Shown here piece after piece: positions 1 through 34,131 of a DNA stretch of 64,000 bases (its first letter is position 1; every line of letters starts with the position of its first letter). Source of the DNA: Promethearchaeia archaeon. Its GTDB lineage: Archaea > Asgardarchaeota > Lokiarchaeia > Sigyniarchaeales > SOKP01. The translations under genes and the position numbers were made by a program. The stretch covers positions 32,001-96,000 of the forward strand of contig JAHQWJ010000080.1 of NCBI GenBank assembly GCA_029856125.1. The letters are read 5' to 3'. The notes below the pieces were generated by a model, which did not search any database, was not told the DNA's origin, and saw only the letters and a program-made list of their open reading frames with translations.

Positions 1-824
1 TCCTCTTTGTTTTTAGGTAATCCAAACATATCCGCATATTTATCAGTTGTATTTAATTCTGCTGACCTTCCTTTTTTTACCGCTGTTATTAGATCGTTGT
101 CCAAGAGATATTTCACATGCTCGTAAGCGCCACTTCCTCTTAATTTAATTACGGTTGACTTTAAAATTGGCTGTTTCAGAGCAATTACAGTAAGTGTTCT
201 TAAATAGCGCTCAGCAATAGCACCACCTTTAGCGAATTTGGAAACTGTTTCTGTAAGTTCCGGTCTTAGCTGCATTTGATATTTTTCTCCAATTTGGGCG
301 ACAATCAATGCGCCTTCACGGTCTAAATAGTCAAAAGCAACAACATTTACAAGTTCTTCTACTTCTTTTTTTGGGATTTCTAATTTAGTTGATAATTCTT
401 CTACATCCAGAGGTCTACCAGCCGCATAAAGAGCGCCCTCTATTAGATTTCTCCGTAGAACATTTAATTGTAATTCTAATTCTTCTTTCGTGAGTTCTTT
501 AGGTATATGAAATTCAACTGTATCATCTCCTATAACTTCAGTCTCTCGTTCGCTTAAGTTTTCTTCTGAGGGGTCGAGACTCGATGATTCTTCCCCCTCA
601 ATATTTAATTCTTCTTCAATAAACTCTTGGAGATCTTCTTCTTCTTTAAAATCTTGTTTAGGAAAATCTTCTATGGTTTCTTTGGTTTCTAATTCGATCT
701 CAATATCTTCTAAATTCCTTTCTTCTTGAGGAATTTCTTCGGGATTAGTCTCATCTAAAGGTTCTACTTCATTCGTTTCGGCTTCGTATTGATTTTCGTG
801 TTCTTTTTCGTTATTTTCGTTCAG
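1..824 (-). CDS. scpB: Segregation/condensation protein ScpB (KITE) with a long acidic N-terminal extension; C-terminus runs off the window
   Basis: Manual translation: ...RRNLIEGALYAAGRPLDVEEL...KYQMQLRPE...LRTLTVIALKQPILKSTVIKLRGSGAYEHVKYLL...TTDKYADMFGL, typical of ScpB; lies downstream of smc-scpA. The only plausible start is CTG at 824, 6 nt after GGTGA (835-831), with in-frame stops just upstream. Confidence 0.93.
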   Translation of the reverse strand, partial: MNENNEKEHENQYEAETNEVEPLDETNPEEIPQEERNLEDIEIELETKETIEDFPKQDFKEEEDLQEFIEEELNIEGEESSSLDPSEENLSERETEVIGDDTVEFHIPKELTKEELELQLNVLRRNLIEGALYAAGRPLDVEELSTKLEIPKKEVEELVNVVAFDYLDREGALIVAQIGEKYQMQLRPELTETVSKFAKGGAIAERYLRTLTVIALKQPILKSTVIKLRGSGAYEHVKYLLDNDLITAVKKGRSAELNTTDKYADMFGLPKNKE

Positions 825-853
825 TTTCTATCACCAAAAATTAGGATTGTAAT

Positions 854-1858
854 TTAACTTTTTAAATTTATTGAGAAATCTTTAAAATCTTCGTCTTGAA
901 ATAGTTCTAACTTATTCCCTGTTGAGAGGAACATTAAAGCTAAAAACATGCGAACAAAAGCGAACTTCTTACCTATGTCGCTTTTTTCTTCGATATTAAT
1001 AATTTCTGCCATGTCATAAAAGGAGGTTTCTTTATCGTCAAGTTTTATTTTAGTTTTTATTCTGTTAAACCAAGCGTTGTGTAACTCTTCTACAGTTTGT
1101 TCCTTCCCGCTAATGTGTTTTAAAAGTTCTTTTGGCAGTTGCGCTTTAGATTTTTTTTGAATTCGCTGTTCTTTTAATTCATCCCGTCTCATTCTTCTCC
1201 TTTTTAGTTTTTCTTTTTTTTGCATTGTCTCAATTATTGCAGATCTCATAGCGTCAAATAATTCGTCTTTAGTGGAGATTAACATTTTAGGCTGAATAGG
1301 TTGTGGTAAAGATTTGGGTATCGATCTACCGTGCCTTGCCCTGAATTGCGCCAATTCTTCCTTTTTCTGAATCTGTTCTTCATCCCGTATTATGCTAGAG
1401 ATTTTGTAGTGATGTAATACTGCCGAAGTTTTAAGCGCGATTCCAGCAATTTTATAATTAATTAAATCTTCATGAAGCATATTATTGAAGAATTTATCAA
1501 CTAATGAAGCTAGATCGTAAAAGGCTACATTTGATTCCTTCGCGACTTCGGGATCTAAAAGGCTTGAAAAAGGCGGTTTCTGCCAGAACTTTAATTCTAA
1601 CTTTTCTTTATGCAATAATGCGGGATCTTCTTCCTCGCCGGCGACTAACTCTTCTTCCAATACTTCTTCATCCATATCATCTTGAGTTCGGTCTACAAAT
1701 TCTGGATGTGAAGCGATCTTTTCTATAAGTTTAATAATTTCATTTTTTTTTGATTTAGACGGTATCTTTATGTTGTTTTTACTTGCAAATTCCCTAAGTT
1801 GCTTTACAGACCATTCTTTGAAGTTGTATTTTTTCTCTTCACTCTCATTTTCTGGAAC
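854..1858 (-). CDS. scpA: Kleisin ScpA, probably with a 61-aa N-terminal extension carrying a HeH/SAP/Rho-N-like domain
   Basis: Lies between smc and scpB; kleisin N motif (DLASLVDKF...NYKIAGIALKTSAVLHHYK) and C-terminal wHTH (VRMFLALMFLSTGNKLELFQDEDFKDF). The frame stays open upstream of ATG 1675 to GTT 1858, 6 nt after AGGTGT. The start position is inferred. Confidence 0.88.
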   Translation of the reverse strand, partial: VPENESEEKKYNFKEWSVKQLREFASKNNIKIPSKSKKNEIIKLIEKIASHPEFVDRTQDDMDEEVLEEELVAGEEEDPALLHKEKLELKFWQKPPFSSLLDPEVAKESNVAFYDLASLVDKFFNNMLHEDLINYKIAGIALKTSAVLHHYKISSIIRDEEQIQKKEELAQFRARHGRSIPKSLPQPIQPKMLISTKDELFDAMRSAIIETMQKKEKLKRRRMRRDELKEQRIQKKSKAQLPKELLKHISGKEQTVEELHNAWFNRIKTKIKLDDKETSFYDMAEIINIEEKSDIGKKFAFVRMFLALMFLSTGNKLELFQDEDFKDFSINLKS

Positions 1859-1884
1859 GATTATACACCTTAAGTTTTTAATTT

Positions 1885-4800
1885 TTAATTTTCTTCAATA
1901 GTAGGAGGCACATCTGGAAGTTCGAGTAACCTTTTCGCTTCTTCTTCTAAATCGACACTAAAAATGTCGGTGATTCCGCTTTGTTGCATGGAAACACCGT
2001 ATATGCGATCTGCGTTAACTATATTCTCTTCACGATGACTTATCACCAAAAATTGCGCTTGTCTGGCAAATTCTTTAATTACCATACTTACTCTATGAAC
2101 ATTGGGACCATCTAAGGCAGCATCTATCTCGTCCATAATATAAAATGGCGCAGGATAAAATTCTTGAACCGCAAAAATAAATGACAAAGCAACGAGTGTT
2201 TTTTCTCCGCCACTCAATATTTCTAAACTGGAAATACGCTTCCCACGGGGTCTAGCTTCGATACTACATCCTCCTTCAAAAGGTTTATCTGGTCTATCGA
2301 GAATCATTTTTGCAGATCCCCCTGGTGAAAGCTTCTGAAATATTCGAGCAAACTCACGATTGATTTCGTGGTAAGCCTTCATGAATGTTCGAGTTTTTTC
2401 CAATTCAATTTTTTCAATAGCATCGAGAATTGCTTTTCTTTCACGTTGTATCGTTTGCCTTCTCATATCTATTTCGTCAAATCTCTCTTTTATAGTATCA
2501 TATTGCGTAATAGCTTTCAAGTTAACTGGTTCCAAAGCTTTTTTCTTGTTGGTAGCTGTAGAAATATCTGATTGTAATCCCGATTCTGAGAGCTCGTCAG
2601 TCACTACGGGCAAAGCACCGTAATCCTTCGATCTCTGATAAAAAGTTTCTATCTGATCTGTAGTAATAATCTTTTTTGATTCAAAATTGTTTAGTTTAGC
2701 ATTTTCCATTGAAAGATCAGAGCGTAGGTCGTTTATTAGTTTCTGATAATTTTTTTGTTTCTGCCAGGATATATCCTTTCCTTGAATCTGTTTATTAATT
2801 TCTTCCTGTTTTACATTCTTTTTGTCTTCTTCTTGTTTTAAATCAGTTTCAATGTTTTCAATATCTTTTACTATTAATTCTATTTGTTTCTCAGTTTCTT
2901 TGATGTCTTGGTTAAGAGAGATTATTTTTTGTTCTCGTTCTTTATTTTTATTTAATTCGTTTAATTTAGCTTGTATTTTTTGAAGATCTTTATTAAATTT
3001 ATTTAATTCTTTTTGAACTTTCTTTTGCGCTTCCAACTCTTTGTTTTTATCTTCTCTTAAAGCATCTATGACTAATTGGATTTCATTGACTTTCTTTTGT
3101 ACCTCATCTACTTGGGTATTAAAACCCTCCATGTCTTGAGCACACTGTTTAATATTTGCGTTAGCTTCCAAGTTTTCCTTAGTTAATTCTTCAATTGAAT
3201 TGATAACCATCATAACATTTTCAAGTGCCCTTAGGTTATCCATTGTACTCTCTAATTTTTTATTTTGGTTACCAATATGAGTTCTTAACTTTTCTGTATT
3301 CTCCCAAAACTTATTTTTTTCTAAAATTTGAGAATCGATTTTTACTGTTAAAGCTTCTTGTTCTAAATTGAGATTTGTAATGTTTTCTTCAGTGTTAATT
3401 ATAATATTTTTCTTATTTTCTATATTTGAATTTAATTCTTGGATATTATTCTCAATATCAATGATTTTTTCATAAAAATTTTGTATTCCCTGCAATTCTT
3501 GAAGTTTTTTATGCAAATCGTCTAATCCTTGCTGTTTTATTTCTATATTTTTCTTGATAGTAGAAACTTTATCCCAGTAGTCCTCTTTGAGTTGTTTTAC
3601 ATTGTTTATTTCTTCATTGAAATTTTCTTTTTGTTTTTCTCCTATAACAGTATTCCTCTGCTTAACCTCAGCTTCAGACTTTTCGATTTTCCCGACCAAT
3701 TCGGTGATTCTTTTATTAACTTCTTCTAATCTCTTATTAGTAACTGATAAATCGTCTGAATCATGCTTTTCTTGAGTATTTATCCGTGTTAAATCTTTTT
3801 CAATTTGGTTTAGATCCAGAGTTTGAGACGCAATATTTTCAGTGATCTCTTCAAGCTGTTTATATTGCTCTTGTGATTTTGACATAGTGAGTTTTCGCAA
3901 TGATAAGTATACATTCTCAAGAATTTCCATTAAATCTTGAACGAAGCTATCAAAAGTTGATGTAGATTGTTGAATTTCTACGTCAGCACTTTCCTTTACA
4001 GAATCAATTAACTGATCTATCGTTGTGTCAACATTCTCAGTAAAAAGAGTTAATGTCTGAAGTATAGACTTAAGAGTTTCAGACATTTCAGCAACCTCTG
4101 ATTTTTGTTCCGCTTCTGCTTCAGCTTCAGAGCTTACATCTTCAACCGTCTTCATAATATCGATAATATCAAGGACAAATTGTTTAAAGTTAACCCCTGA
4201 CGTCTCAATTGCCTCAGCATTAGACTGTTGAATGTTGCTCTTGATAGATTCGACGGAAATATTGATATTCTGAGTGAGCATGTTCAGTATTTGCAGGATT
4301 CCTGTTATATCTTCAGTATTTCTTTCGTATTCTTTTTCTGTATTTTCAATTTTAGCTAATAAATTATTTTTTTCAGTAGTTAGCTCTCCTATTCGTCTTT
4401 GAATATTATCTTTTCTTTTATTAAGCCCTTCTGATTCAGAGCTATTTTTAGTTAAATTTGCGTTTAGAGTTGACGATTTTAATTCTAAATCTTGTTTTTC
4501 CCTCTCAAGATTGGTCGATTCTTTTTTTAATAGATTTAACCTCGTATTAATATTATCAATTTTGGTTCTGTTATCATTAATTTCTGATTCAATAGAATCT
4601 TGTTTCATTAACAATAATTCTAATTCTTGTTCATTTTTTCTATAAATAGAATCTTCATCTTTTAATTGTTGTCGATAACTGTTTAATTCATTAGTTAGAG
4701 TATCTTTTTCCCTTAATAGCTCTTTTAACGCCTCTTCTGTGTCTTTCCCTTTACTTAATTCTTTGATTTTTTCTTCAGTTTTGATTTTATCTACATTCAA

Positions 4801-6354
4801 CTTTTCTATCCTATCGGAGTTCATCTTAATCTCTGTAGTTAGTGACGATAACATAGATTTGAAATCTGCAGACTTTGAATTAAGATTGTTCTTATCTTCT
4901 TGTAGGGTTACGATAATTTTCTCTAGATCTTGTTGATTTTCGTTCTCTTTTGAGATTTTTATATTTAAGTCATTAATTTCTTTTCTTGTTGCTTCAGCCT
5001 CACTCTTTGTATTAGCTATTGCATCTTCAATGCTTTCTGATTCTCCTTTTAATTTGCTAAGATCCAGTTCTAATTTCTGTTTTTTTTCTTCGTTTTTTTT
5101 AATATTCTTTTTCAGAATTTTAATTTGAGCTTTATTCGATGAAATACTTTGCTTTATAACGGAGATTTCTCCATTAAATCCTGTTTTTCCATCGTTTTGT
5201 TCTTTAATTTTTGCGTCAATGTCAGCTTGTTTTTGGTGTTTACTTTCTATTTCTGCTTTTGATGCTTCAATTTGACTTTCTGTATCTGCTACAACTTTCA
5301 TTTCTGATTCAATTAAAGAATCAAATGTTTGGCCTTCATCAAGAACCATCTGCAATTTTTCCAAAGTATTAATTTCTTGAGAAATTTTTTCAATTGACTT
5401 ATTTGCGAGGGTTAAAGACGTTTTATTTGAAGATTGTTGCGTTTTAAGTTGAGTGATTTTTTCAGTGATGATTTCTCTTTCTTTTTCTTTTTCAGTTATG
5501 TTTTTTTGTATATTTTCCATAACTAATGATTCTTGTTTTAAAATATCATCTTGTCTTGTTAATTTTTCTTTTAATTCTTCTAAGATTGTATTAGATTCTT
5601 CAATACTTTTTTCTAGATCATTTTCTTCCTTCCTTAATTTCTCTATCTTTAATGCTATCAATTGAGCGTTGTATAAGTCGATTTGTTCATCTAACTCTTT
5701 CCATGCCAAAGCATCATTCTTTTCTTTTTCTACTTTTTTTAATTGAGAGGAAACTTCTTTGAAAATTGCTTCAAATTGGCCTAGATCTCTTTCAGCCTTT
5801 TCTAGTTCCTTCATAGTTCCATCCTTCATTTCATCGTATTTCTGTAGGCCAATAAGATCTTCTATAAATATTCTGCGTGCTACCGGATTCATGTGAGTTA
5901 ATTCTACGATTTTCCCTTGTAGAACGAATTGATTACTTCCATCAGGATCTACATTTGCAGCTGCAAGAGCATTAAGAATCTGAGTTCTAGTAGATTTTTT
6001 GCCGTTCATTTTATATCCTCCGCCCCCTCCTCGTTGAATTGTTCGAGTAACTTCGAATGTTTCTGTTCCACCTGGGAAAATTTCCTCTGAGTTATCGAAA
6101 TATAATGTGACCGAAGCTCTGTTTGAAGGGTTTTTACCTCGGGATCCCGCAAAAATCAAATCTTCAAGACTCTTAGCTCTCATAGTTTTTTTGCTCAGTC
6201 TACCTAAAGCAAATGTTAAAGCGTCAATAATGTTAGATTTTCCTGCGCCGTTAGGGCCTACTATACAAGTAAATCCGCTCGAAAGCCTAAGAGTAACAGT
6301 TCTGTCACCGAATGATTTAAATCCGGTCATAGAAATTTTTTTGATGTAGGTCAA
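1885..6354 (-). CDS. smc: SMC ATPase, 1489 aa, elongated arms, no canonical hinge
   Basis: GFKSF, Walker A GPNGAGKSN, R-loop MRAKSL, Q-loop VLQG, PVNLKAI, signature LSGGEKT, Walker B/D-loop IMDEIDAALD, H-loop ISHR; first gene of the smc-scpA-scpB operon. Confidence 0.96.
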   Translation of the reverse strand: MTYIKKISMTGFKSFGDRTVTLRLSSGFTCIVGPNGAGKSNIIDALTFALGRLSKKTMRAKSLEDLIFAGSRGKNPSNRASVTLYFDNSEEIFPGGTETFEVTRTIQRGGGGGYKMNGKKSTRTQILNALAAANVDPDGSNQFVLQGKIVELTHMNPVARRIFIEDLIGLQKYDEMKDGTMKELEKAERDLGQFEAIFKEVSSQLKKVEKEKNDALAWKELDEQIDLYNAQLIALKIEKLRKEENDLEKSIEESNTILEELKEKLTRQDDILKQESLVMENIQKNITEKEKEREIITEKITQLKTQQSSNKTSLTLANKSIEKISQEINTLEKLQMVLDEGQTFDSLIESEMKVVADTESQIEASKAEIESKHQKQADIDAKIKEQNDGKTGFNGEISVIKQSISSNKAQIKILKKNIKKNEEKKQKLELDLSKLKGESESIEDAIANTKSEAEATRKEINDLNIKISKENENQQDLEKIIVTLQEDKNNLNSKSADFKSMLSSLTTEIKMNSDRIEKLNVDKIKTEEKIKELSKGKDTEEALKELLREKDTLTNELNSYRQQLKDEDSIYRKNEQELELLLMKQDSIESEINDNRTKIDNINTRLNLLKKESTNLEREKQDLELKSSTLNANLTKNSSESEGLNKRKDNIQRRIGELTTEKNNLLAKIENTEKEYERNTEDITGILQILNMLTQNINISVESIKSNIQQSNAEAIETSGVNFKQFVLDIIDIMKTVEDVSSEAEAEAEQKSEVAEMSETLKSILQTLTLFTENVDTTIDQLIDSVKESADVEIQQSTSTFDSFVQDLMEILENVYLSLRKLTMSKSQEQYKQLEEITENIASQTLDLNQIEKDLTRINTQEKHDSDDLSVTNKRLEEVNKRITELVGKIEKSEAEVKQRNTVIGEKQKENFNEEINNVKQLKEDYWDKVSTIKKNIEIKQQGLDDLHKKLQELQGIQNFYEKIIDIENNIQELNSNIENKKNIIINTEENITNLNLEQEALTVKIDSQILEKNKFWENTEKLRTHIGNQNKKLESTMDNLRALENVMMVINSIEELTKENLEANANIKQCAQDMEGFNTQVDEVQKKVNEIQLVIDALREDKNKELEAQKKVQKELNKFNKDLQKIQAKLNELNKNKEREQKIISLNQDIKETEKQIELIVKDIENIETDLKQEEDKKNVKQEEINKQIQGKDISWQKQKNYQKLINDLRSDLSMENAKLNNFESKKIITTDQIETFYQRSKDYGALPVVTDELSESGLQSDISTATNKKKALEPVNLKAITQYDTIKERFDEIDMRRQTIQRERKAILDAIEKIELEKTRTFMKAYHEINREFARIFQKLSPGGSAKMILDRPDKPFEGGCSIEARPRGKRISSLEILSGGEKTLVALSFIFAVQEFYPAPFYIMDEIDAALDGPNVHRVSMVIKEFARQAQFLVISHREENIVNADRIYGVSMQQSGITDIFSVDLEEEAKRLLELPDVPPTIEEN

Positions 6355-6471
6355 TTTTGAATCGCCATTTCATTCATTCTTTTATAAAATAAAGTATGAT
6401 TTCATCTATTTATATACTCGGGATATGAATGTTAGGATTCTTGTTTTTAATATTTTTTAAAATAAAAAAAA

Positions 6472-7656
6472 TTAGTGTTTGGTGAAAATAGCATCCATGA
6501 TAGGCTTTAGTTGCTTTGGGTTTATAACCATAAAGTAGTAATCGTAATTCAAGACATTGTCGTTAAAGTATCGAAAATTATTTATATCATTTTTTTTTGA
6601 AGCGTTTAATATCCCGATATTGCGTAAATTAACGATTAAATGCTTAAATTCCTCTATATCCTTTGTATAATCTAATGATTCACATGTTACATGATACAAT
6701 TCTCTTAATTCCCCGATAGTTATATAAAGATTTGCTTTTTTTAGAAAATAATTAGATAAATTATCCAGAAAAATCAGGTTTAACAGATCTGATTCTGAGA
6801 TATAGCTTATCATACTAAATTCATCTGTAATTTGAAGCGTGTCAAATTGGCTTTGAAGAATATCATAAATCTCGAACTTTTTTAAAGTCATTTTTTGATT
6901 TAAAACAGGATAAAGCTCTCTCAAAATTTCAATACCTTTTCCTGGAACAGGTACGTGGTGCTCGAAAATTAAATCAGTAATTAAATCTATTAACTCTTTA
7001 TCGATTTCATTGAAGAACGCCAAAGAAATTCTTTGCTTTATAATATCGTTAAGCTCGGAGAATGAAAAGTAGTCTAATTTCTTTTTAAAGTCAAATTCGC
7101 TCAAAATCTCCAGGATTGACGATCTTAATACTTGATTACCAGTAGATATTACGTTAATTTTGTTTTCTTTGCCGTATTTTAAAAATTTTCTAAAAGTCTC
7201 TGGTTGTATGTGTTCAATATTATTAAACACTAGAGTTATATTATGATCTACTTTTCTACATACAAGCTTAAACAAGTTCCATAAATCCAAGATAGAAGAA
7301 TTTAGAAACGAATTATAATCAAAATTGATGTTCTTTTTCCTTCCAACTTCAGCTATTAACGAAACTAATATCTCTTCCACAGTTTTTTCAGCGCAATCAA
7401 TTTGGATTTTTATAAGTTCAGTATTTAAAGTAGAAATATCGTTCAAGACCTTGTTTACAATAACTTTTTTCCCAATTCCTTGTAAACCAGAAAATAATAT
7501 ATTTAGTTGAAATTCATCTAGTATTGAATCTTTAAGAATTGAATAAAGCGATTTTTCTTCTGATTTTCGATGTAATATTTTAGGGGGGATATATGATTGA
7601 TCAAATAACGCTCTTGGACCAACGAATTCACTATTTATCCTTTGTGGAGAAATCAT
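6472..7656 (-). CDS. Orc1/Cdc6-like AAA+ protein with degenerate ATPase motifs
   Basis: N-terminal FDQSYIPPKILHRKSE typical of Orc1/Cdc6; Walker A GLQGIGKK (no T/S), Walker B LVFNNIE (no DE); C-terminal wHTH (ITIGELRELYHVTCESL...LRNIGIL). Confidence 0.8.
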   Translation of the reverse strand: MISPQRINSEFVGPRALFDQSYIPPKILHRKSEEKSLYSILKDSILDEFQLNILFSGLQGIGKKVIVNKVLNDISTLNTELIKIQIDCAEKTVEEILVSLIAEVGRKKNINFDYNSFLNSSILDLWNLFKLVCRKVDHNITLVFNNIEHIQPETFRKFLKYGKENKINVISTGNQVLRSSILEILSEFDFKKKLDYFSFSELNDIIKQRISLAFFNEIDKELIDLITDLIFEHHVPVPGKGIEILRELYPVLNQKMTLKKFEIYDILQSQFDTLQITDEFSMISYISESDLLNLIFLDNLSNYFLKKANLYITIGELRELYHVTCESLDYTKDIEEFKHLIVNLRNIGILNASKKNDINNFRYFNDNVLNYDYYFMVINPKQLKPIMDAIFTKH

Positions 7657-7823
7657 TTTATTTTTTATTTTTTATTTTTTATTATTAGTTTAAAAATTTA
7701 TATTTAAACCCCCCGGGAGATGGGTCATTGGATCTAAAACTGCTCAAATTTAAATTTGAAATTCACTCTGCAAATTGATAAAAAATTAGAACCAATTTTA
7801 AGAAAAGTTTATGTCTTTCTTAT

Positions 7824-9394: not shown

Positions 9395-9544
9395 AAGCTC
9401 TTAGGAAAAACCTTAAATTACATTTAATTGAAATAAATTTATTTATTTTTACGAATATATAACCTTTAATATTAATTTATTCTATGTAAAACTGAAATTA
9501 GTTTGAAGAGATTTTTAAAACTATATATAACGGAGATTCGTTAA

Positions 9545-10705: not shown

Positions 10706-10711
10706 GATTCT

Positions 10712-10963: not shown

Positions 10964-10970
10964 TCAATAA

Positions 10971-11053
10971 ATTTAAATTTCAGTTTGGGGCGACAGCGTC
11001 ATCGCTTTGAGCAAAGCTCTTTCGATTGTCATAAGTTCATCATTAATTTAAAT
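10971..11053 (-). ncRNA. Box C/D guide sRNA
   Basis: Minus strand: C box ATGATGA (11043-11037), internal hairpin GAGC-TTT-GCTC, C'-like GCGATGA, D box CTGA (10983-10980), closed by a perfect 9-bp terminal stem ATTTAAATT/AATTTAAAT; GC-rich island between convergent genes. Confidence 0.8.
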
Positions 11054-11063
11054 TCTTATTTCT

Positions 11064-19199: not shown

Positions 19200-19607
19200 T
19201 TGGAGTTTGGTACAGACCTTGGAATTGGGCCCGATGAAATCGAAAAAATAAGTCCTCAAATTACTTTTATCACTTCAAACGCGGATATTGAAGCTATCGC
19301 TCTTGTGAGCTTGGAAGGTTATCAGATCGCTTTTTCAGCCCTTCCACAATATCAAGTTGACGGAGATCAGTTTTGTGGGCTAGCAAGTGCATTATTAATG
19401 ACTGGAAGTTCAACAATTAAAACACTATTTCAAGAAGATTTAAGTGAAATAATTGTGAGAGCTGAGAATGGTTATGTAATTGTAAGCAACGCAGGGCGTC
19501 TAGTAATCGTGTGTGCAGGAACGCTCATTGATACATTGATGAAAACTGTTAAAGTAATGAGGGTTGCTGCAAAGAATTTAGCTATGATTTTTGAACAAAA
19601 ACAATAA
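19200..19607 (+). CDS. Roadblock/LC7 domain protein
   Basis: IEAIALVSLEGYQI...GLASALL...EIIVRAENGYVIV; TTG start 6 nt after GGTGA. Confidence 0.9.
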   Translation: MEFGTDLGIGPDEIEKISPQITFITSNADIEAIALVSLEGYQIAFSALPQYQVDGDQFCGLASALLMTGSSTIKTLFQEDLSEIIVRAENGYVIVSNAGRLVIVCAGTLIDTLMKTVKVMRVAAKNLAMIFEQKQ

Positions 19608-23484: not shown

Positions 23485-23636
23485 AATTAGTATTATTAAT
23501 ATTATTTTTTTTATTAAAATTTTGAAATTTACACAGAGTATAAATTATATTTGTATCTGTGAAAAATGGAAAAATAGAAAAAAATGAATGCATGATTAAT
23601 AAATAAGAAAGCAATAATTTTTAACGATAATGCAAA

Positions 23637-25697: not shown

Positions 25698-26425
25698 TTT
25701 CCTCTTATTATCTTAAGATTATGACAATCATCAAATAATATACCATCTATCTGGTTATCAATTAATTTGTTTATTACTTGTAGAGGTTGTTTATAACCCA
25801 AAAAGCCCCAAGCAAGTGACTTAATATCGTTAACACGGCATATCTTTATAAATTGATTAGAAATTAAATCTGATCGAAGATTTATCATATCCGGAAGATT
25901 TTTAAGTTTTTTTCGATGACCTTTTTCTATAAATTGCTTTAAATTTAAACCTCTACCTTTAGTCATGTTAAAACATGTTCTTATCGGTTTAAATGCTTCC
26001 TTATATCTTTTTAATTTATTAATATATCTTCCACTTATTATACAATTCTTTAGAACACCTCTTTTATCTATTAAATCTAATACTTCTTTTTCAATTCCAT
26101 CATCTTTCAAGTGTATTATAAACTGCGTTTTATCTGTTAAGTAATCTATAGCTTCTTCTAAAAGGGGGATTTTTTGGTTTCTTATTTTTGTCTTAAGATT
26201 TTTAACATCGTTATAAGTTAAATTTTTTAATACTCCTTTACCATTAGTGGTCCTGGTTAATGTAATATCGTGAAAAACGATTAACTTTCTATCTTTTGTT
26301 CTTCTAACGTCAAGTTCTATGCAATTTGCTCCAGATTTAATTGCAATATCGAACGCTTCTAATGTGTTTTCATCGTAATCTACTAAAGTGCCTCTATGGC
26401 CAATAAAAAGTGTAATTTTTTTCAT
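25694..26425 (-). CDS. Glycerophosphodiester phosphodiesterase family protein
   Basis: IGHRG, ENTLEAF, IELDVRRTKD, VFHD. Confidence 0.9.
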   Translation of the reverse strand: MKKITLFIGHRGTLVDYDENTLEAFDIAIKSGANCIELDVRRTKDRKLIVFHDITLTRTTNGKGVLKNLTYNDVKNLKTKIRNQKIPLLEEAIDYLTDKTQFIIHLKDDGIEKEVLDLIDKRGVLKNCIISGRYINKLKRYKEAFKPIRTCFNMTKGRGLNLKQFIEKGHRKKLKNLPDMINLRSDLISNQFIKICRVNDIKSLAWGFLGYKQPLQVINKLIDNQIDGILFDDCHNLKIIRGN

Positions 26426-26458
26426 TAAAAGAAATAAATTTTAAGAATATAAATTTTG

Positions 26459-26875
26459 TTAGTTTTCTTGAACTAAAAACAAGTAAACTATTATTATTAA
26501 TAGGCCTATTAGACTGAAAGAAAAAACTATAGAATCTCTAAAAGATTGGATTAAAGAAAAGATAAAAATAAGCACAATTAACTTCAAATCTAATGGTTTA
26601 CCAGTTAATTCCTTATAATTTCCGATACTAATCATCATAAAAATGAAGAAAAATAGGATTACTAGAACCTTAACAGTGATATCTAGAGTTTGCAACAGGA
26701 TGGTTTCGCGTGCAAACAGAGATAGATAACCACCGTTTAATAAAATTGATATTATTAATAGTATTCCGGCAATAATGGCTGATAGTATGACTGAACGATG
26801 AGCAGATTTTTCTTTTAATTTGGGTTTTCTTTTGACCGTTCCTGATTTTAAATTTTCTTTTTTTATTTTTGACAT
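26459..26875 (-). CDS. Hypothetical multi-TM membrane protein
   Basis: About four hydrophobic segments. Confidence 0.75.
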   Translation of the reverse strand: MSKIKKENLKSGTVKRKPKLKEKSAHRSVILSAIIAGILLIISILLNGGYLSLFARETILLQTLDITVKVLVILFFFIFMMISIGNYKELTGKPLDLKLIVLIFIFSLIQSFRDSIVFSFSLIGLLIIIVYLFLVQEN

Positions 26876-26884
26876 GCTAGCACA

Positions 26885-27706
26885 TTAACTCCTAATTCTT
26901 TCGATTTCTTTCTTAAGTCGTGTAATTCGATAGATATAATAAGCAAAAAATGCTCCAATCGTAGAAAAAATGACAATTGTGGAGATTGACATCAAAAGCT
27001 CACCAATAGGTAATTTGGGGGCTCCGGGGGGGTATTGCAAATCGATAGAAATAATATTCGCAATAATAATTCCAATGGGATAGTCTGTAGATTTACCGAA
27101 TATTATCTTAAAGTTAAATGTATCACCATAGTCTAATTCTACATCCTCTATACCACCTTCGAGATTTTCAACAGGCATGGAAAACTCATAAGTTATTTGA
27201 TTTCCCTCTAATTTCGCAGCTCCATCACCGTCAGGATTCATGTCTCCATAATAACCCGTATCGTTAATATAATAATCTAAATAACTATAACTGTTCGTTG
27301 ACATGTTTGAAAATTGAACAATTTTAGCATCAGTGAAGTCCAAATCTGCATCCCAATCTGCAATTAAAATCCCAAGAAATTCTTTATCGAATTCACTAGA
27401 GCTATGATCGTCGAAATCAAATCGAGCTAAAATATATAAGTTTGGTTCAGCTTGTATAACCCATAGTTCAATAGGTAAACCATCGCTTTGGTTTAATAAA
27501 TCAGGAAATAGCTCAATTTCTAACTTTTCCGCTGAATCCCATTCGCCTGTGGCACCATCAACAACGCCGTCTATAACAGGTGCTGTTCCAAATCCCACAT
27601 CAATCTCAATTGGAGTCCCATAGCTTTTTTCAATGAGGAATGCTGAACTTACAAGTATCTGAGCAATGAAGATGAAAATAATAATGGTTGTTGTGTGTTT
27701 TTTCAC
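26885..27706 (-). CDS. Secreted, C-terminally anchored surface protein with a CBM9/DOMON-like domain
   Basis: Signal peptide, APVIDGVVD...EWDSA start motif, YEFSMP, C-terminal TM followed by basic residues. Confidence 0.65.
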   Translation of the reverse strand: MKKHTTTIIIFIFIAQILVSSAFLIEKSYGTPIEIDVGFGTAPVIDGVVDGATGEWDSAEKLEIELFPDLLNQSDGLPIELWVIQAEPNLYILARFDFDDHSSSEFDKEFLGILIADWDADLDFTDAKIVQFSNMSTNSYSYLDYYINDTGYYGDMNPDGDGAAKLEGNQITYEFSMPVENLEGGIEDVELDYGDTFNFKIIFGKSTDYPIGIIIANIISIDLQYPPGAPKLPIGELLMSISTIVIFSTIGAFFAYYIYRITRLKKEIERIRS

Positions 27707-27909
27707 TTTTATATAGCCACTTTTTTATCATTAAGCGATAGTTCAATTTTACTTTTAATTAAAGAAACTTAATAAAGTTGATAATTAAAATTGAATTTAA
27801 TATTTTTTCTTTGTCTTAGCAAATTATGAGGATTTTCAATCAAAAATTTTTGGGATTTCCTTTGTGAAGAAGAGATAGTACTCTTTTCAATATTTAAAGA
27901 ACTTTCATT

Positions 27910-28359
27910 TTATGAAAGATAATTAGGTAATAGAACGCTGCAATTGAATTTGTTTAAATAAGTTACAATATAATTTATCAAGCGTTTTATATCATGTTTA
28001 GTTTCAAGAATATTACTATTATTATATTCTGCGAATTCCTTTGGTCCAATTGCAATTAACAGCCCCGATAGATCTTTCTCTCTCTTAATAAAAAGCCAAA
28101 AAGGATTTTTTTTTTCACTATCTTTAATTAGGAGTAGCATCCATGGATTTAAAGTCCATTCTTTAGAATCGGGTCCGATTACTTTTTCTATAGCATGCCC
28201 TGTAGAATATTTTTTAGTTATTTTTATAGCTTTTACTAACCGGTTAAAGTAGGACCGTTTCAGTTTTAAATATCCTTTGAAATAAGACTTGGCGTCGTAG
28301 AGTTCTAATTCATTACTTGTTCCATCTGCGAATTTCAGATCAATTTTCCAAGTACTCAT
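27910..28359 (-). CDS. Hypothetical protein
   Basis: 149-aa ORF directly downstream of pop5 on the same strand. Confidence 0.75.
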   Translation of the reverse strand: MSTWKIDLKFADGTSNELELYDAKSYFKGYLKLKRSYFNRLVKAIKITKKYSTGHAIEKVIGPDSKEWTLNPWMLLLIKDSEKKNPFWLFIKREKDLSGLLIAIGPKEFAEYNNSNILETKHDIKRLINYIVTYLNKFNCSVLLPNYLS

Positions 28360-28381
28360 ATTAAATCCAAATAATTTTTCT

Positions 28382-28762
28382 TTAGCTTATTTCCATAATT
28401 TGAATATCTTTATTATTCTTATTATTTCTATCCAAAAATAATTTTTTAGTAATTTGAATACTACGAATAGTCCCGGATGTTTTTATAGGAGAAAAAACGA
28501 TTTTATTACCAGATATTTCAGTGATTAATGTCAAAGCGGATATCACGACTTCTTTTGTTTGATGAGAACATCTTATAATTCCAAAACCTTCTAAAAAATT
28601 AATATCAACCAACCACAATCCTACTCTGCTAGCTTCTTTTAAGCCAAAATACTTCCATAGGGATGCCCATATCGAATTTAGAATCTCTTGATTATTCAAA
28701 TGTTTAATATGTTCCGATATCACTTTAAATAGGATATACCTATGACGTTCATTTTTTACGAC
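28382..28762 (-). CDS. rnp2: RNase P protein Pop5/Rpp14 family
   Basis: IWASLWKYFG, GIIRCSH, KTSGTIR; the conserved ERHRYILFK motif lies upstream of the ORF-track GTG, implying a start at GTC 28762 (6 nt after GGTGA). Confidence 0.9.
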   Translation of the reverse strand, partial: VVKNERHRYILFKVISEHIKHLNNQEILNSIWASLWKYFGLKEASRVGLWLVDINFLEGFGIIRCSHQTKEVVISALTLITEISGNKIVFSPIKTSGTIRSIQITKKLFLDRNNKNNKDIQIMEIS

Positions 28763-29487
28763 TACTCTTCACCCTGATTTATTATTTTTACTCCCGATTC
28801 TATGAAATTTCTATCTTGACGCATTTGTACTCGATTTAGAAGAGAAATTACATTTTTAGAGAAACAATTTTTAGCTCGCAGCATTGAAATGCCTAAAAGG
28901 GTATGACAAACGCTAATTAAAGCTCGAGGATGTCGTATTGAATAAAGATCGTCAAAATTTCCGCTTATGATATAGTTTGCATTTAATTTATTAGCGAGTT
29001 GTACGCCTCGGTAAAGATTTCTTAGATTTTTGGACTGTAATGATTTATTTTTTACCATTATTGAAGCGAGCGAAAATTCGATAAACGACTTATTCTGTTT
29101 GGTAAGAGAAATTACACCTGGAAAAATCGTTTTGAGTACAGCCTGCTCTGAAAACGAGATTAAGTCCACTCTGGAATCTTTAGCAGCCTGAATTTGAATT
29201 TTTTTATCTGGAGATTCAACCACTATAATGTTGGATGATTGTCCAATTCCTTTGAGTTTCTTAATTAGGCTTTCTAGATTTTTTGGATTAATATTAGTAC
29301 GATATTTAACATTTATATTTGTGATCTCTTCTATTCTTCTTTTTAAATCTGGTTGTATTTTTTCTCTATTATTTTCAAGCTCTACAATCACATTTTGAAC
29401 CCCTAATAATTTACAAAAATGTAACTTCTGCTCAATTTCCTTGAAGTTGTTAGTTTTTACCCTTAACCTTGATTCAAAATATGACAA
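28762..29487 (-). CDS. rnp3: RNase P protein Rpp30
   Basis: AAKDSRVDLI, FIEFSL, IISGN...IRHPRALISV; adjacent to pop5. Confidence 0.88.
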   Translation of the reverse strand: MSYFESRLRVKTNNFKEIEQKLHFCKLLGVQNVIVELENNREKIQPDLKRRIEEITNINVKYRTNINPKNLESLIKKLKGIGQSSNIIVVESPDKKIQIQAAKDSRVDLISFSEQAVLKTIFPGVISLTKQNKSFIEFSLASIMVKNKSLQSKNLRNLYRGVQLANKLNANYIISGNFDDLYSIRHPRALISVCHTLLGISMLRAKNCFSKNVISLLNRVQMRQDRNFIESGVKIINQGEE

Positions 29488-29607
29488 TCAGATCTTAACC
29501 TCTAATTTCAGATCGGGATTTATCTGTAGCGTTTTCGATGTTTTAAGTGTTCTTAAATAAAAAAAAATTTATTAGAATAAATATTTTACATGTTATATAT
29601 GTTATAA

Positions 29608-30906
29608 GTGGTTCTATTGGCTAATAAACGAAAGCTTTCTGATATAAAGAAAAAAATTCATAACGGCAATGCAAATGTTCTTACTGCTCAGGAATTTATC
29701 AGTCGCATTGAAAAGGGAGAAAACTTTAAGTTTGAAGACATTGATGTGATTACGACCGCCACTAAAGGTCTAATGAGTGGAATTATGGGGGTATTTTCCT
29801 TTAGATTAGCACCCCCAAAAACCTTAAGAAAATTTACTGAAATCACCCTAAACGGAATCTCAGCTTTTCCTGGACCGTGCCCCAATGAGTATTTAGGAAT
29901 TGCTGATCTAATTGTTTACGGTACTGCTCAAAGTCATTCAAGAGAAAATTATTGTGGAGGATCCTTGTTTAGAGAACTAGTGGAAGGAAAACCCATCTCC
30001 ATCCATGCTAAAAGCAGTGAGGGAAATATTATCGATATGGATTTAACATTAAAAGAGATGCAATTTGCAAAACTTATGGGGACTCGTCAAGCGATAAAAA
30101 ATTACAATGCGATGCTTAACTGCGAAACATTTCAAGTAGATACTATATTTTCTTGTCTTCCTTTTGAACCTAATAAGTCAGAATTAACATTTTCTGGCTG
30201 TGGTGCTCTAAATCCTTTTCAAAACGATCCTAATTTCCGGACTTTTGGAGTGGGATCCCCACTCTTAGTTAATGGAGCTCAAGGGTATTTGATGGGACCA
30301 GGAACGCGAAATTATATCGCAAAACCTAATATGATGACAATCGCCCCCATGGATCAAATGAAGCCGGAATATTTGGGAGCTTTTAAAACTTCTTATGGAT
30401 TAGAACCCATATGCTCAATAGCTATTCCCATACCTATATTAACCGACAAAATTTTTGATGACATTGTCAAATCAGACAAAGATGTTAATTTAACGATTTT
30501 AAGTCTCGTAGGACGTGAAAAAGTTGGAGAGATCACTTATGCAGATGTATGGGATAATAATTTCGTAATGAAGTTTAACCCTAAAGCGTGTAGTAAAGGA
30601 TATAAGTGTAAAGTTATAGACAACTGCCCTACAAATGCTTTTATTATAAGAGAGGGATTAATCTCAGCAATTGATAGAGCTAGATGTTTTAATTGCGGAA
30701 ATTGTGCGAAGTTATGTCCCGACGCTTTTAGTATGGACTTAAAATCAATTCAGTATGAAGGAAAGGAAATTCCCGTTGTTTTAAGGCAATCTGATAGGGC
30801 AGGAGCTATCATGCTAGCTGAGGAACTTAAACAACAGATTCTAAAAGAGGAATTTCAGTTAAAAAAGCCAACTGGAATGCTAGATTTTGCTGAAAAATTA
30901 AAATAG
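29608..30906 (+). CDS. Methanogenesis marker 16-like metalloprotein (DUF39 domain plus C-terminal ferredoxin)
   Basis: DIDVITTAT.GLMSG, LNGISAFPGPCPNE.LG, TFSGCGALNPFQNDP, YADVW, CFNCGNCAKLCP, LRQSDR. Confidence 0.85.
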   Translation: MVLLANKRKLSDIKKKIHNGNANVLTAQEFISRIEKGENFKFEDIDVITTATKGLMSGIMGVFSFRLAPPKTLRKFTEITLNGISAFPGPCPNEYLGIADLIVYGTAQSHSRENYCGGSLFRELVEGKPISIHAKSSEGNIIDMDLTLKEMQFAKLMGTRQAIKNYNAMLNCETFQVDTIFSCLPFEPNKSELTFSGCGALNPFQNDPNFRTFGVGSPLLVNGAQGYLMGPGTRNYIAKPNMMTIAPMDQMKPEYLGAFKTSYGLEPICSIAIPIPILTDKIFDDIVKSDKDVNLTILSLVGREKVGEITYADVWDNNFVMKFNPKACSKGYKCKVIDNCPTNAFIIREGLISAIDRARCFNCGNCAKLCPDAFSMDLKSIQYEGKEIPVVLRQSDRAGAIMLAEELKQQILKEEFQLKKPTGMLDFAEKLK

Positions 30907-30936
30907 CATCAAATCGAGATTAAAGGTGAATTCTAA

Positions 30937-31380
30937 ACGACTGATATCAAATTAGATAAATTTGATCAAATTGGGATTGTAGTTAATAATATTGAAAAAG
31001 CGGCTCAAATGTATCGAAAGCTTTTTAACTTTAAAGGGAACATAAATATCGTTGAACAGAGCGCAACCGTTAACTACAAGGGAAAAGATGTGACCTTTAA
31101 CATGAAAAAAATTATGCAGTTCTTTGGAGGCAAACAATTTGAAATCGTTGAAGTAGTTGATGCAACTGGTCCCAATCTTTACTCGGAGTTTATAGCAGAG
31201 GGAAATACTGGCTTACACCACTTAGGTATTTACACAAAAAACGCTGAAGAATTAATTGAACAATTTAAACAACAATTTGATGTGGAAACCGCTCAAGTGG
31301 GAAAATTGGGTAAGTTAACTTTTACTTACTTAGACACTAAAGAGATTCTAGGATATTACATTGAAATCCTTGAGTTTTAA
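30937..31380 (+). CDS. VOC/glyoxalase family protein (methylmalonyl-CoA epimerase-like)
   Basis: DQIGIVVNNIEKA (upstream of the ORF-track ATG), QFEIVE, GLHHLG, YLDT..LGYYIEI; inferred start ACG 30937, immediately after an in-frame TAA. Confidence 0.88.
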   Translation, partial: TTDIKLDKFDQIGIVVNNIEKAAQMYRKLFNFKGNINIVEQSATVNYKGKDVTFNMKKIMQFFGGKQFEIVEVVDATGPNLYSEFIAEGNTGLHHLGIYTKNAEELIEQFKQQFDVETAQVGKLGKLTFTYLDTKEILGYYIEILEF

Positions 31381-31445
31381 CATTAAACTATTGGTTTCTG
31401 TTCTTATGTAATAAAGTTTATTTTTAATTTATAATACTTTAATTT

Positions 31446-33188
31446 ATGTCAAAACAAAATACTAATCCGTTAGACGGGGGAGATTTGGTTGTGAAAAGCC
31501 TCCTTAAAGAGGGAATCACTAAAATTTTCGGTCTCGTTGGCGGAGAATTATTAAGGATTTATGACGCTATAGAACGATATGGTCGAGAAGAGGGCATAGA
31601 TACTGTAATGGTTCGCCATGAACAAGCGGCTGGACACATGGCAGACGCTTGGGCGCGCGCTACAGGGAAATTAGGTGTTTGTTTAGGGACTGCGGGGCCT
31701 GGCGTTACTCATCTTGTGCCAGCTGTGGCTACGGCGTGGGCAGATTCAATCCCACTTCTTGTTATTGGAGCTCAGATAGGAAGGATGTTTGATGATACGG
31801 GTATTCTCCAGGGAGGCTTAGATCAAATGAAATTAATGGAGCCGATTACAAAAGCGCAGATATCAGTTGAAGAACCTTACGAAATTCCAAGAGCAGTACA
31901 AAGAGCTATTAAAGTTGCGATGTCAGGTCGAAGAGGTCCTGTTTTTCTAGAATTTCGAGAAACCGCTCTTGTTAGAAAAGCTTCAGAGGATGACCTTAAG
32001 AACATTTTAGAGCCTGAGCAATATAGACCCATTTATAGGCCAGTAGGAAATCCAGATGCGATTAAGGCTGCTATAGAAATTTTAAAAACTGCAAAAAATC
32101 CATTAATCGTTGCGGGAGGAGGAATTCACGCTTCAGATGCGTCTACCGAGCTTAAAAAATTATCTACAACATACAAAATTCCGTGTGGAACAAGCATAAA
32201 CGGTGTTGGTGCTATTGATATTCGTAGTGAAACATATGTTGGGTCGTATCTAGTTGCAAACGCATATCGAAAGGCAGTATCAGAAGCCGATGTGGTTATA
32301 TCGTTCGGTGCTAAATGGGATTATACAATCTTGTTCGGAGCTCCACCCATTTGGAACCCAAACGCGAAGATTATTCAAAACGATATCGACCCAGAAATGA
32401 TCGGTCGAAATAGAAAAGTTTCTGTTGCTATTATTGGCGACGCTAAGGTCGTAATAAATCAGTTACTAGCAGAAATGGAACAAGCACTCCCTAAAGAAAA
32501 AATTTCTGAATGGTCTGAATGGAATTCTTATCTATCAGATCTCAAAAAAAATGACGCTTTAGCTATTCAAAAATTAATGAAATATGATAAGTTGCCTATG
32601 AAACCAGAAAGATTTGCATATGAAGTGTTGGATTCATTAAAACACGATTCTCAACTAGTAATTGATGGTGGCGATATAGCCGTCTTCACTTTTGGGTTAA
32701 TCAGTAACTTCCCTCGCGATCCAAGAACGCTATATTTCCCATTAACGATGGGACATCTAGGTACGGGTATTCCTCACGCAATAGGTGCCCAAATAGCTAA
32801 TCCAGATAAACAAGTTGTTTGCATTAACGGAGATGGTAGTTTTATGTTCAACATTCAGGAGCTTGATACGGCAGTTCGACTAAATTTACCCATCATTATT
32901 ATTATTGCTAATAATTGCGCGTGGGGCATGATAAAAAGCAAGCAAAAAGGGGAATTTAAGAAAAGATATTGCGATGTAGATTTACCGCCAACCAATTATG
33001 CAGAAATAGCAAAAGGTTTCGGTTGTTACGGCGAAAAGATAGAAAAACCAGAGGATATTAAGCCTGCTATACAAAGAGCAATAGAATCTAAAAAACCAGC
33101 CGTTCTAGATGTAGATATCGCTTTTGAAACGCCCATTGCGATGAAAGTAATCGGAAATCTTAAGAAAAACCGTGGATTATATGGTTAA
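31446..33188 (+). CDS. Thiamine-diphosphate enzyme, acetolactate synthase-like / 2-hydroxyacyl-CoA lyase (ILVBL-type)
   Basis: RHEQAAGHMADAWAR, TAGPG, IDGGD, GDGSFMF...NNCAWGMI. Confidence 0.9.
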   Translation: MSKQNTNPLDGGDLVVKSLLKEGITKIFGLVGGELLRIYDAIERYGREEGIDTVMVRHEQAAGHMADAWARATGKLGVCLGTAGPGVTHLVPAVATAWADSIPLLVIGAQIGRMFDDTGILQGGLDQMKLMEPITKAQISVEEPYEIPRAVQRAIKVAMSGRRGPVFLEFRETALVRKASEDDLKNILEPEQYRPIYRPVGNPDAIKAAIEILKTAKNPLIVAGGGIHASDASTELKKLSTTYKIPCGTSINGVGAIDIRSETYVGSYLVANAYRKAVSEADVVISFGAKWDYTILFGAPPIWNPNAKIIQNDIDPEMIGRNRKVSVAIIGDAKVVINQLLAEMEQALPKEKISEWSEWNSYLSDLKKNDALAIQKLMKYDKLPMKPERFAYEVLDSLKHDSQLVIDGGDIAVFTFGLISNFPRDPRTLYFPLTMGHLGTGIPHAIGAQIANPDKQVVCINGDGSFMFNIQELDTAVRLNLPIIIIIANNCAWGMIKSKQKGEFKKRYCDVDLPPTNYAEIAKGFGCYGEKIEKPEDIKPAIQRAIESKKPAVLDVDIAFETPIAMKVIGNLKKNRGLYG

Positions 33189-33324
33189 TCTTCTTATATT
33201 CAATTTTCTTAACTCCTTTTTTAATTTTTTATGATTTTTAAATAACATTTAATTCAATGTAGAATAAGGTTAATCTAAAAAACGCTTATAAATTAAATTC
33301 CATAATTCTAAGAGGTAGTATAAA

Positions 33325-34131
33325 CTGTCAGATAATAAATTTTTAAACGGAAAAGTATCTTTAATTACAGGGGCTGGTAGTGGGTTTGGGAGAGAAATGG
33401 CCATAGCTTTTGCTAAAAATGGATCTTCTCTTGTCTTGAACGATATAAATATGGCTGGTCTTGAAGACACGCGTGATTTAATTTTAAAAAACTTTCCTTC
33501 TACATCAATCCTCTTGGCTCAAGCTGACATTTCGAAGATCCAAGAAGTAGAAAGAATGAAAAAGCAAGTATTTGAAAAATTTGATAATGTTTTTATACTG
33601 GTAAACAATGCCGGAATTGACGGAGGTGCTTACAAATCATTATCTGCGTCAGAAGAAATCTATGATAAAGTAATGGGTGTCAATGCTAAAGGAACTTGGA
33701 ATGTAACTAAAACTTTCTTCAGAAAAATGAAAAGCCAAAGGCATTTTCAACCAATTCGAGCTAAAATCATTAATATTGCCAGTTGTGCTGGGACTGCTAA
33801 TGGAATCAACCCAATGTTAGGCATATATAGTGCTAGTAAAGCAACAGTTATCGCCTTCACAAAATTATGGGCTCTAGAGCTCGGCCCTGTTGATATAACA
33901 GTTAATGCAATCTCCCCGGGTGTTTTTCTTACACCTATATATGATAACGATCCGGTTAAAATACGACAGTTTTTAGAAACGAGAGGGGTTAAACTTCCAT
34001 TGGATAGAATTGGAGAATCTAAATGGGTAGCTGACTTAGCAGTATTTTTAGCATCTCCAACAGCTGATTACATCTCTGGACAAAACCTAATTATTGATGG
34101 TGGAATGACAGTTTCAATAAATAAGCTATAA
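33325..34131 (+). CDS. Short-chain dehydrogenase/reductase
   Basis: TGAGSGFG cofactor motif lies upstream of the ORF-track ATG; NNAG, YSASK, VNAISPG, DGG; inferred start CTG 33325 after GAGGT. Confidence 0.93.
   Translation: MSDNKFLNGKVSLITGAGSGFGREMAIAFAKNGSSLVLNDINMAGLEDTRDLILKNFPSTSILLAQADISKIQEVERMKKQVFEKFDNVFILVNNAGIDGGAYKSLSASEEIYDKVMGVNAKGTWNVTKTFFRKMKSQRHFQPIRAKIINIASCAGTANGINPMLGIYSASKATVIAFTKLWALELGPVDITVNAISPGVFLTPIYDNDPVKIRQFLETRGVKLPLDRIGESKWVADLAVFLASPTADYISGQNLIIDGGMTVSINKL

Follow-up and report, generated by a model that had tools for sequence, protein, structure and literature searches.

We analyzed a 64,000-nucleotide (nt) stretch of DNA from a Promethearchaeia archaeon (contig JAHQWJ010000080.1, positions 32,001 to 96,000 of the forward strand; the window), in which scpB, scpA, pop5 and the genes of a VOC/glyoxalase-family protein and an SDR protein carry the odd codons CTG, GTT, GTC, ACG and CTG at their predicted starts, each behind a Shine-Dalgarno sequence (SD). 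The SD geometry, the substitution pattern among orthologues, purifying selection on the N-terminal stretches and a frame-specific genome-wide enrichment were observed directly, and they point to odd codons that are very probably real translation starts behind SDs in this genus. The genome under study (G000) is a metagenome-assembled genome (MAG) of 3.69 Mb in 153 contigs with 32.7% GC, estimated as 99% complete with 6% contamination. ATG, GTG and TTG are called canonical below, and the window features are as follows.

822..824, minus strand: predicted scpB start CTG, 6 nt after GGTGA, with an in-frame TAG two codons upstream
831..835, minus strand: scpB SD GGTGA, spacer TAG AAA; tttttGGTGA is kept in the CTG-bearing relatives
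1..824, minus strand: scpB coding region, 3' end beyond the window edge; Pfam SMC_ScpB at residues 127-273
1856..1858, minus strand: scpA start GTT as chosen in the preliminary description, 6 nt after GGTGT
1859..1861, minus strand: alternative scpA start ATC, in frame, 3 nt after GGTGT (aligned spacing 4)
1865..1869, minus strand: scpA SD GGTGT, spacer ATA ATC
854..1858, minus strand: scpA (kleisin) coding region including stop
28760..28762, minus strand: predicted pop5 start GTC, 6 nt after GGTGA, in 1-nt overlap with the stop TAG of the upstream gene
28769..28773, minus strand: pop5 SD GGTGA within the end of the upstream gene, with an in-frame TGA inside the SD; spacer AGA GTA
28382..28762, minus strand: pop5 (RNase P component 2) coding region including stop; Pfam Rpp14/Pop5 at residues 8-103 (profile 1-100)
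30925..30929, plus strand: VOC SD GGTGA, followed by 7 nt ending in TAA
30937..30939, plus strand: predicted VOC start ACG, 7 nt after GGTGA, with an in-frame TAA directly upstream
30937..31380, plus strand: VOC coding region including stop; Pfam Glyoxalase_4 from residue 10, first ATG at residue 25
33312..33316, plus strand: SDR SD GAGGT (GAGGTAG at 33312-33318, TAG in frame), spacer TAT AAA
33325..33327, plus strand: predicted SDR start CTG, after GAGGTAG TAT AAA
33325..34131, plus strand: SDR coding region including stop; Pfam adh_short from residue 10, with TGAGSGFG preceding the first ATG (residue 25)

The scpA assignment is confirmed by the JGI name of its cluster members, 'Rec8/ScpA/Scc1 kleisin'. 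We found the odd codons, their SD spacing and the in-frame stops at all five sites as the preliminary description gives them. Its statement that a stop bounds each frame shortly upstream holds for the four genes scpB, pop5, VOC and SDR, whose in-frame stops lie 0-3 codons upstream, and not for scpA, where the in-frame TGA (1897..1895) lies 12 codons upstream of GTT, so that ATT 1882, ATA 1864 and ATC 1861 are also in frame. Aligned spacing was counted from the last G of GGTG. The canonical starts of the genome peak at 7-8 nt after this G, and all five window sites have an aligned spacing of 7-8. TTG starts were said to be very common, and TTG indeed makes up 19% of the first canonical codons (579/3005). 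The spacing reference of the preliminary description was the TTG start of a roadblock gene, to which the following TTG of the window, with the same spacing, would correspond:

19200..19202, plus strand: TTG start, 6 nt after GGTGA, opening a 135-codon frame

Orthologous start regions were aligned for each gene from up to 24 genomes of the same genus and 16 genomes from other families. For all five genes, ATG, GTG or TTG occupies the aligned codon in some relatives at the same SD spacing, an outcome that answers the orthologue check proposed earlier. The aligned scpB codon is CTG in five genomes (G000, G007, G024, G013, G014), TTG in two (G010, G011) and ATG in three (G008, G004, G016). For scpA, about 8 genomes have GTT at this position, about 10 have ATT, three ATA, three ATC (right after an in-frame TAA) and one GTA; non-canonical starts of this gene are conserved across the genus, ATG being found in more distant genomes only. 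Such conservation would be compatible with, and is no demonstration of, the earlier suggestion that the TTG, GTT and CTG starts of smc, scpA and scpB might tune subunit stoichiometry. The pop5 codon is GTC in three genomes (including G003 and G010), GTG in two (G016, G004), ATG in three (G008, G023, G002), ATA in four and ATC in four; Val-Lys follows the start in all pop5 orthologues and the stop/start overlap is retained. For the VOC gene, two relatives of 95% identity that share the SD differ at this codon, G003 having ACG and G010 having ATG; more distant relatives have ATG or TTG. The SDR codon is TTG in G010 (94%), CTG in G024 (87%) and ATG, TTG or GTG in 13 others. A separate detail of the SDR alignment is a one-A homopolymer difference between two orthologues, ATGATAATTTTT in G012 (L016) and ATGATAAATTTTT in G021 (L018), which puts the ATG out of frame in G012; either an assembly error or a genuine move of the start, to a downstream codon or to an ATT, could explain it.

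The letters themselves were checked over window positions 28300-34200 in Logan contigs of four sequencing runs from other studies (X2, X5, X7/X8). The pop5 GTC has the same letters in the X2, X5 and X7/X8 contigs (three studies), and the VOC ACG in the X2 and X5 contigs. Position 33325 of the SDR gene gives CTG in X2 and X5 and ATG in the strain of X7/X8, which is about 99% identical; since this strain reads A at 33325, CTG/ATG is a within-species start-codon polymorphism. The SDR start region of the X7/X8 strain carries two changes, TAG>TAA in the spacer (33318) and CTG>ATG (33325); the sole further difference on its 283-nt contig is common to all four runs. A MAG in 153 contigs with 6% estimated contamination could in principle carry assembly or binning errors or pseudogenes at these sites. 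This explanation is practically negligible: independent MAGs and the run contigs of other studies carry the same codons, the genes are intact and conserved, including the essential uS4, aIF1 and Pop5, and five substitution errors falling exactly on start codons are not credible. The refutation by assembly error, which had been named in advance, was therefore answered in the negative.

The stretches between the odd codons and the first canonical codons behave as coding sequence. The ratio of nonsynonymous to synonymous substitution rates (dN/dS) from the odd codon to the first canonical codon is 0.0-0.4 for VOC, SDR and aIF1. For ScpA codons 2-61 it is 0.17-0.19 in the two comparisons with an estimable dS; the other 14 comparisons have a saturated dS and a low dN (0.05-0.33). 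In ScpB, Pop5, VOC and SDR the Pfam domain starts ahead of the first canonical codon. In scpB this codon is the TTG at 308, 172 codons on (residue 173, within the SMC_ScpB domain), in pop5 a GTG at residue 14, and in scpA the ATG at 1675, 61 codons beyond GTT. For ScpA, the HeH-like models Ish1 and Rho_N give matches at residues 13-46 that fall just under the curated Pfam cut-offs, and this HeH/SAP-like stretch of about 60 residues (window 1676-1858, minus strand) lies upstream of the first ATG and is omitted by public gene calls. Scoring of hexamer coding potential over pre-start stretches was tried and dropped, because it was positive for nearly any open stretch and did not separate coding from merely open sequence.

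These data bear on the possibility that the odd codons are decayed starts and that translation begins at the next downstream ATG, GTG or TTG, giving the shortened proteins that gene calls assume. Public calls on this contig do use the first ATG for ScpA (273 residues) and VOC (123 residues), and the downstream GTG of pop5 would cost 13 residues only. However, the skipped stretches are under purifying selection, and the beginnings of Pfam domains would be lost, with the SDR protein left without TGAGSGFG and ScpB without 46 domain residues. SDs stand at the odd codons and none at the downstream codons, and the genome-wide pattern described below is frame-specific. The systematic N-terminal mis-annotation anticipated in the preliminary description was found for two of the three genes looked up, ScpA and VOC being cut at the first ATG in public calls; for the third, SDR, the protein cut at the first ATG has no match in the public collection.

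For a genome-wide test, we used 3005 open frames of at least 90 codons passing a hexamer coding score, and examined the in-frame codons that precede the first canonical codon by 4 or more codons. An SD was counted if at least 5 contiguous bases of GGAGGTGATC were present at a spacing of 6-9, as for canonical starts. In frame, 81 of the 2997 CTG, ATT, ATC, ATA and ACG codons have an SD (2.7%; odds ratio (OR) 4.3, p = 2e-20), against 115 of 17893 for all other in-frame codons (0.64%). The same five triplets are not enriched in frame +1 (0.64% with SD, OR 0.50, p = 0.004) or in frame +2 (0.84%, OR 0.66, p = 0.16). The in-frame enrichment holds with the window excluded (78/2948, OR 4.4, p = 4e-20), as does that of GTT and GTC taken together with SDs of at least 6 nt (7/445, OR 10.5, p = 1.6e-5). 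By codon, the OR is 13 for CTG, 5.8 for ACG, 4.8 for ATT, 3.9 for ATA and 3.5 for ATC. ATT, ATA and ATC, missed in the preliminary description, are the most frequent odd starts genome-wide. No SD enrichment was detected for AAG, AGG, TTA, CTA, CTT and GTA in the per-codon test in this genome. Within genes, all codons have the same SD rate of about 1.3%. The SD-anchored, relaxed start selection proposed for this lineage is thus supported by both the five orthologue alignments and the frame-controlled test. A simpler tally of GGTGA motifs followed by a long frame with no canonical start nearby gave 87 'orphans' and was rejected as uninformative, because scrambled control motifs gave similar numbers.

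The excess over background corresponds to about 62 genes for the five codons and about 6 for GTT and GTC, suggesting about 65-70 genes with such starts in this genome, or ~2-3% of genes. By the same rule 240 canonical starts have an SD, so that roughly one in 4-5 SD-led genes would use an odd codon. The tally is a minimum, since the filter misses aIF1 itself. We searched Pfam with 40 of the 42 candidates that have a stop no more than 4 codons upstream, a first canonical codon 12 or more codons downstream and a length of 110 residues or more. The first canonical codon is preceded by the start of a Pfam domain in 19 of the 40, and 21 were uninformative; the 19 include two Ras-family GTPases, uS4, TatD, the RuBisCO large subunit, a PALP enzyme, Gfo/Idh/MocA paralogues and a Hef-like helicase (GTA).

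Four genes outside the window illustrate the pattern:

C84:118620-118958, plus strand: aIF1 (SUI1, Pfam PF01253), predicted start ATT, 22.6 kb past the window end
C82:28861-29361, plus strand: uS4, beginning ATC GGA GAT CCA, 6 nt after AAGGTGA
C82:19782, plus strand: Ras-family small GTPase, predicted start ATT, first canonical codon 98 codons on
C63:10170, plus strand: Ras-family small GTPase, predicted start ATA, first canonical codon 80 codons on

The aIF1 start codon is ATT in all 17 same-genus genomes in which the gene was found, after a near-invariant upstream sequence (loci L151-L181). In other families, it is ATA in G030 and G034 (one family) and TTG, GTG or ATG in the rest. The Pfam domain of aIF1 starts ahead of the first canonical codon, which in G000 is codon 110 of the 116-codon open frame and could hardly serve as a replacement for a decayed start. 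The uS4 start is ATC in 10 genus members, ATA in two and ATG in the remaining members and all other families (L190, L317-L346), its first canonical codon lying 43 codons downstream; the closest public uS4 proteins among the 120 matches listed are 169-residue forms of other strains, beginning MEIGDP, and these 120 do not include a call from G000. With canonical codons 98 and 80 codons downstream, standard calls would remove the P-loop and half of the G domain of both Ras-family GTPases, a loss that the decayed-start reading would also have to accept. Taking these genes together with the window genes, we regard decayed starts as very improbable.

Ribosomes that have just left the upstream gene could alternatively reach the odd codons by termination-reinitiation, perhaps with a laxer choice of codon. 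The pop5 gene fits this route, with its 1-nt stop overlap and a geometry kept in relatives (TAGTC, TAGTG, TAATG, TAATA, ATAG), and scpA, scpB and VOC lie 26-30 nt behind a same-strand upstream gene, which for scpA is smc:

1885..6354, minus strand: smc, first canonical start TTG, stop TAA at 1887..1885, 26 nt before the scpA GTT

Efficient coupling, however, is known only with overlaps or very short gaps (PMC10666635), and among the five window genes pop5 alone has a stop/start overlap (-4/-1) or a very short gap. The SDR start is 136 nt from the preceding gene. Across the genome, an upstream gene ends within 30 nt for only 18% of the SD-led non-canonical candidates, as compared with 42% of the SD-led canonical starts and 16% of the SD-less starts, so that reinitiation is not the general route. 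As an explanation of these starts it is improbable, and it may contribute at pop5.

The start of scpA requires separate consideration. Here translation might begin at ATC (1861..1859), 3 nt after GGTGT, with GTT as codon 2. ATC is start-enriched genome-wide, the pairs recur among relatives as 'ATC GTT' (G000, G007, G010), 'ATC GTA' (G011) and 'ATT ATT' (G008, G016, G004), an 'ATT GTT' pair is found in another gene (C32+10064), and the aligned spacing 4 serves 19 canonical starts. Against this, G013 reads 'AAC GTT' and has no ATH (H, not G) at spacing 4, although it is the only relative with GTT lacking such a neighbour. Elsewhere the GTT position is the unambiguous one, being ATC after TAA (G022, G015, G001), ATA (G024), ATT (G014) or ATG (G023). 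Spacing 7 is about 5 times commoner than spacing 4 (93 vs 19 canonical starts), and GTT and GTC act as starts in another gene (C112:44144-44497). The ATC start is, in our estimate, slightly short of an even chance, and the odds of GTT as the scpA start relative to ATC appear about even.

The extension of relaxed selection to GUU and GUC was one part of the original proposal. It is supported by pop5, by the gene at C112:44144-44497 and by the genome-wide enrichment of GTT and GTC, and it is insecure for scpA, given the ATC neighbour. GTC probably serves as the pop5 start, with no ATH alternative in G000 or G003. The gene at C112:44144-44497 has GTC in G000, G013 and G014, GTT in G011, ATT in ten relatives and ATG in three; in G000 and G011 the odd codon stands directly after an in-frame TGA. 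The FAD oxidoreductase C9:56195-57607 was considered as a further GTC case and rejected, since close relatives read TTC or TTT there and ATT/ATC is conserved two codons further on.

TTT and TTC were also seen at the SD-aligned start of two genes (L300 in G003, L311 in G002, L283 in G007, L284 in G022), where relatives have GTC, GTT, ATT or ATG; at the start position of the C112:44144-44497 gene TTT is found in two genomes. As start codons in general they were rejected, TTT, TTC and TTA having no SD enrichment genome-wide, and because TTY (Y, pyrimidine) is not enriched behind SDs these cases stay anecdotal.

Returning to the odd codons as real starts, several points weigh against this interpretation. 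About one quarter of the 81 SD-led candidates is expected by chance from the 0.64% background. Over 1.2 Mb of the complete genome G032, from another family, only a weak and non-significant enrichment was found (OR 1.9, p = 0.09); G000 sampled to the same size gave OR 3.2 (p = 6e-5), and G032 has a few plausible ATT/ATA cases. Judged from these comparisons, the trait is strongest in this genus and its close relatives. The GTC of C9:56195-57607 is ambiguous, and at scpA an ATC adjoins GTT one codon upstream at a usable SD spacing. An inspection of the aIF1 protein for changes in fidelity residues had been proposed in the preliminary description. Its loop 1 reads K-W-G-K in G000, R-Y-G-K in a Pyrococcus chain and R-F-G-K in M. 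jannaschii, keeping the basic-aromatic-Gly-Lys pattern; the differences are conservative only, and no fidelity change or structural cause is readable from the loop 1 sequence.

As a mechanism, the SD would pair with the 3' end of 16S rRNA (consensus GGAGGTGATC), and this pairing would set the codon 7-8 nt past the last G of GGTG into the P site. There the ordinary initiator tRNA (anticodon CAU) would be accepted on more than ATG, TTG and GTG, and ribosomes would initiate at the odd codons with Met as the first residue. ATT, ATA and ATC would be read via a third-base mismatch, CTG via a first-base mismatch and ACG via a second-base mismatch, while GTC and GTT, with a GTG-like first base plus a third-base mismatch, would be used less often. 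The ATT start of aIF1 suggests a feedback loop governing initiation permissiveness: less factor would lead to more initiation at its own weak codon, and regulation of aIF1 in this way would set how permissive initiation is.

One initiator-type tRNA was found among 17 tRNAs detected by aragorn in G000, with anticodon CAU, A1:U72 and three G:C pairs in the anticodon stem (G29-31:C39-41); among these 17 we found no altered initiator anticodon and no loss of initiator identity elements. Because this tRNA is canonical, the same molecule must cope with a single mismatch, or with a G·U pair and a mismatch together. Aragorn found only 17 tRNA genes, with or without its intron mode, in a genome estimated as 99% complete; the tRNA genes with unusual introns or split tRNA genes presumably account for this low count.

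A more far-reaching model, which we consider doubtful, is that start stringency is deliberately low and set by aIF1 feedback through its own AUU, so that a near-cognate regulon (ScpA/ScpB, small GTPases, uS4, metabolic enzymes) moves with aIF1. With each of the three canonical first bases the third base would then be largely ignored (ATN, GTN, occasionally TTY), and the system would be an archaeal forerunner of eIF1-controlled non-AUG initiation in eukaryotes.

NCBI table 11 includes ATT, ATC, ATA and CTG as rare initiators, the E. coli genes infC (IF3) and pcnB start at AUU, and standard gene finders take ATG, GTG and TTG only. As in infC and pcnB, the odd codon here stands at normal SD spacing with an ordinary initiator tRNA, and as in infC, a fidelity-factor gene (here aIF1) has an AUU-type start. 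Unlike bacteria, this archaeon has the eukaryote-type aIF1/aIF2 instead of IF3; the frequency is far higher (~2-3% of genes), highly expressed genes such as uS4 are included, and ACG, GTC and GTT are outside table 11. In E. coli, the efficiency of ATT is quoted as ~0.3% of ATG (PMC10666635). Streptomyces sigR has a conserved GTC start repressed by IF3 (PMC5472188); its product works with a same-operon partner, and the weak start sets the subunit ratio. The sigR case is a single bacterial gene known from experiment, whereas GTC/GTT is predicted here from sequence as the start of several genes (pop5, C112:44144-44497, possibly scpA).

Sulfolobus aIF1 discriminates against non-canonical codons, as cited in PMC6237735, and the accounts of archaeal initiation in PMC6237735 and PMC7531240 give AUG, GUG and UUG and do not describe routine non-canonical use. 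A 2020 review noted that SDs are not prevalent in a cultured Lokiarchaeon (PMC7531240). With other archaea the present genome shares the SD consensus GGAGGTGA, the spacing, the initiator tRNA features and the aIF1 zinc knuckle. In eukaryotes, eIF1 autoregulation and near-cognate initiation at CUG, ACG and AUU are known (PMC4705826, PMC5666671). eIF1 has the same SUI1 fold (PF01253), the tolerated codons are similar, AAG and AGG being unused, and the weak start of the factor could likewise give feedback. Unlike eukaryotes, there is no scanning or Kozak context here, the SD would position the codon, and the feedback is a prediction only. The tolerated set, with a free third base on A- and G-initial codons, plus CTG and ACG and never AAG or AGG, fits the bacterial and eukaryotic near-cognate hierarchies. 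Our literature search found no account of non-canonical starts in Asgard archaea. Near-cognate initiation itself is known; the novelty lies in how frequent it is, in the extension to ACG, GTC and GTT, in the involvement of uS4 and aIF1, and in the Asgard lineage.

A few percent of the proteins in these Asgard genomes would be cut short or missed by gene finders, and the losses include small-GTPase P-loops, the aIF1 protein and the HeH-like domain with which the kleisin ScpA begins. Because these genomes are heavily mined for eukaryotic signature proteins, wrong N-termini distort domain inventories, structure predictions and phylogenies. A lineage near the eukaryotic stem with putative CUG, ACG, AUH and GUY starts and an AUU-started aIF1 would be a natural system for the evolution of start-codon stringency.

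The N-termini gained by the odd starts differ in character. The N-terminal extension of ScpB ahead of its Pfam domain (window 445-824, minus strand), about 126 residues long, is acidic and of low complexity and is conserved in the genus with a dN/dS of 0.3-0.7. The ScpA N-termini of other families differ from that of the genus and are Lys-rich.

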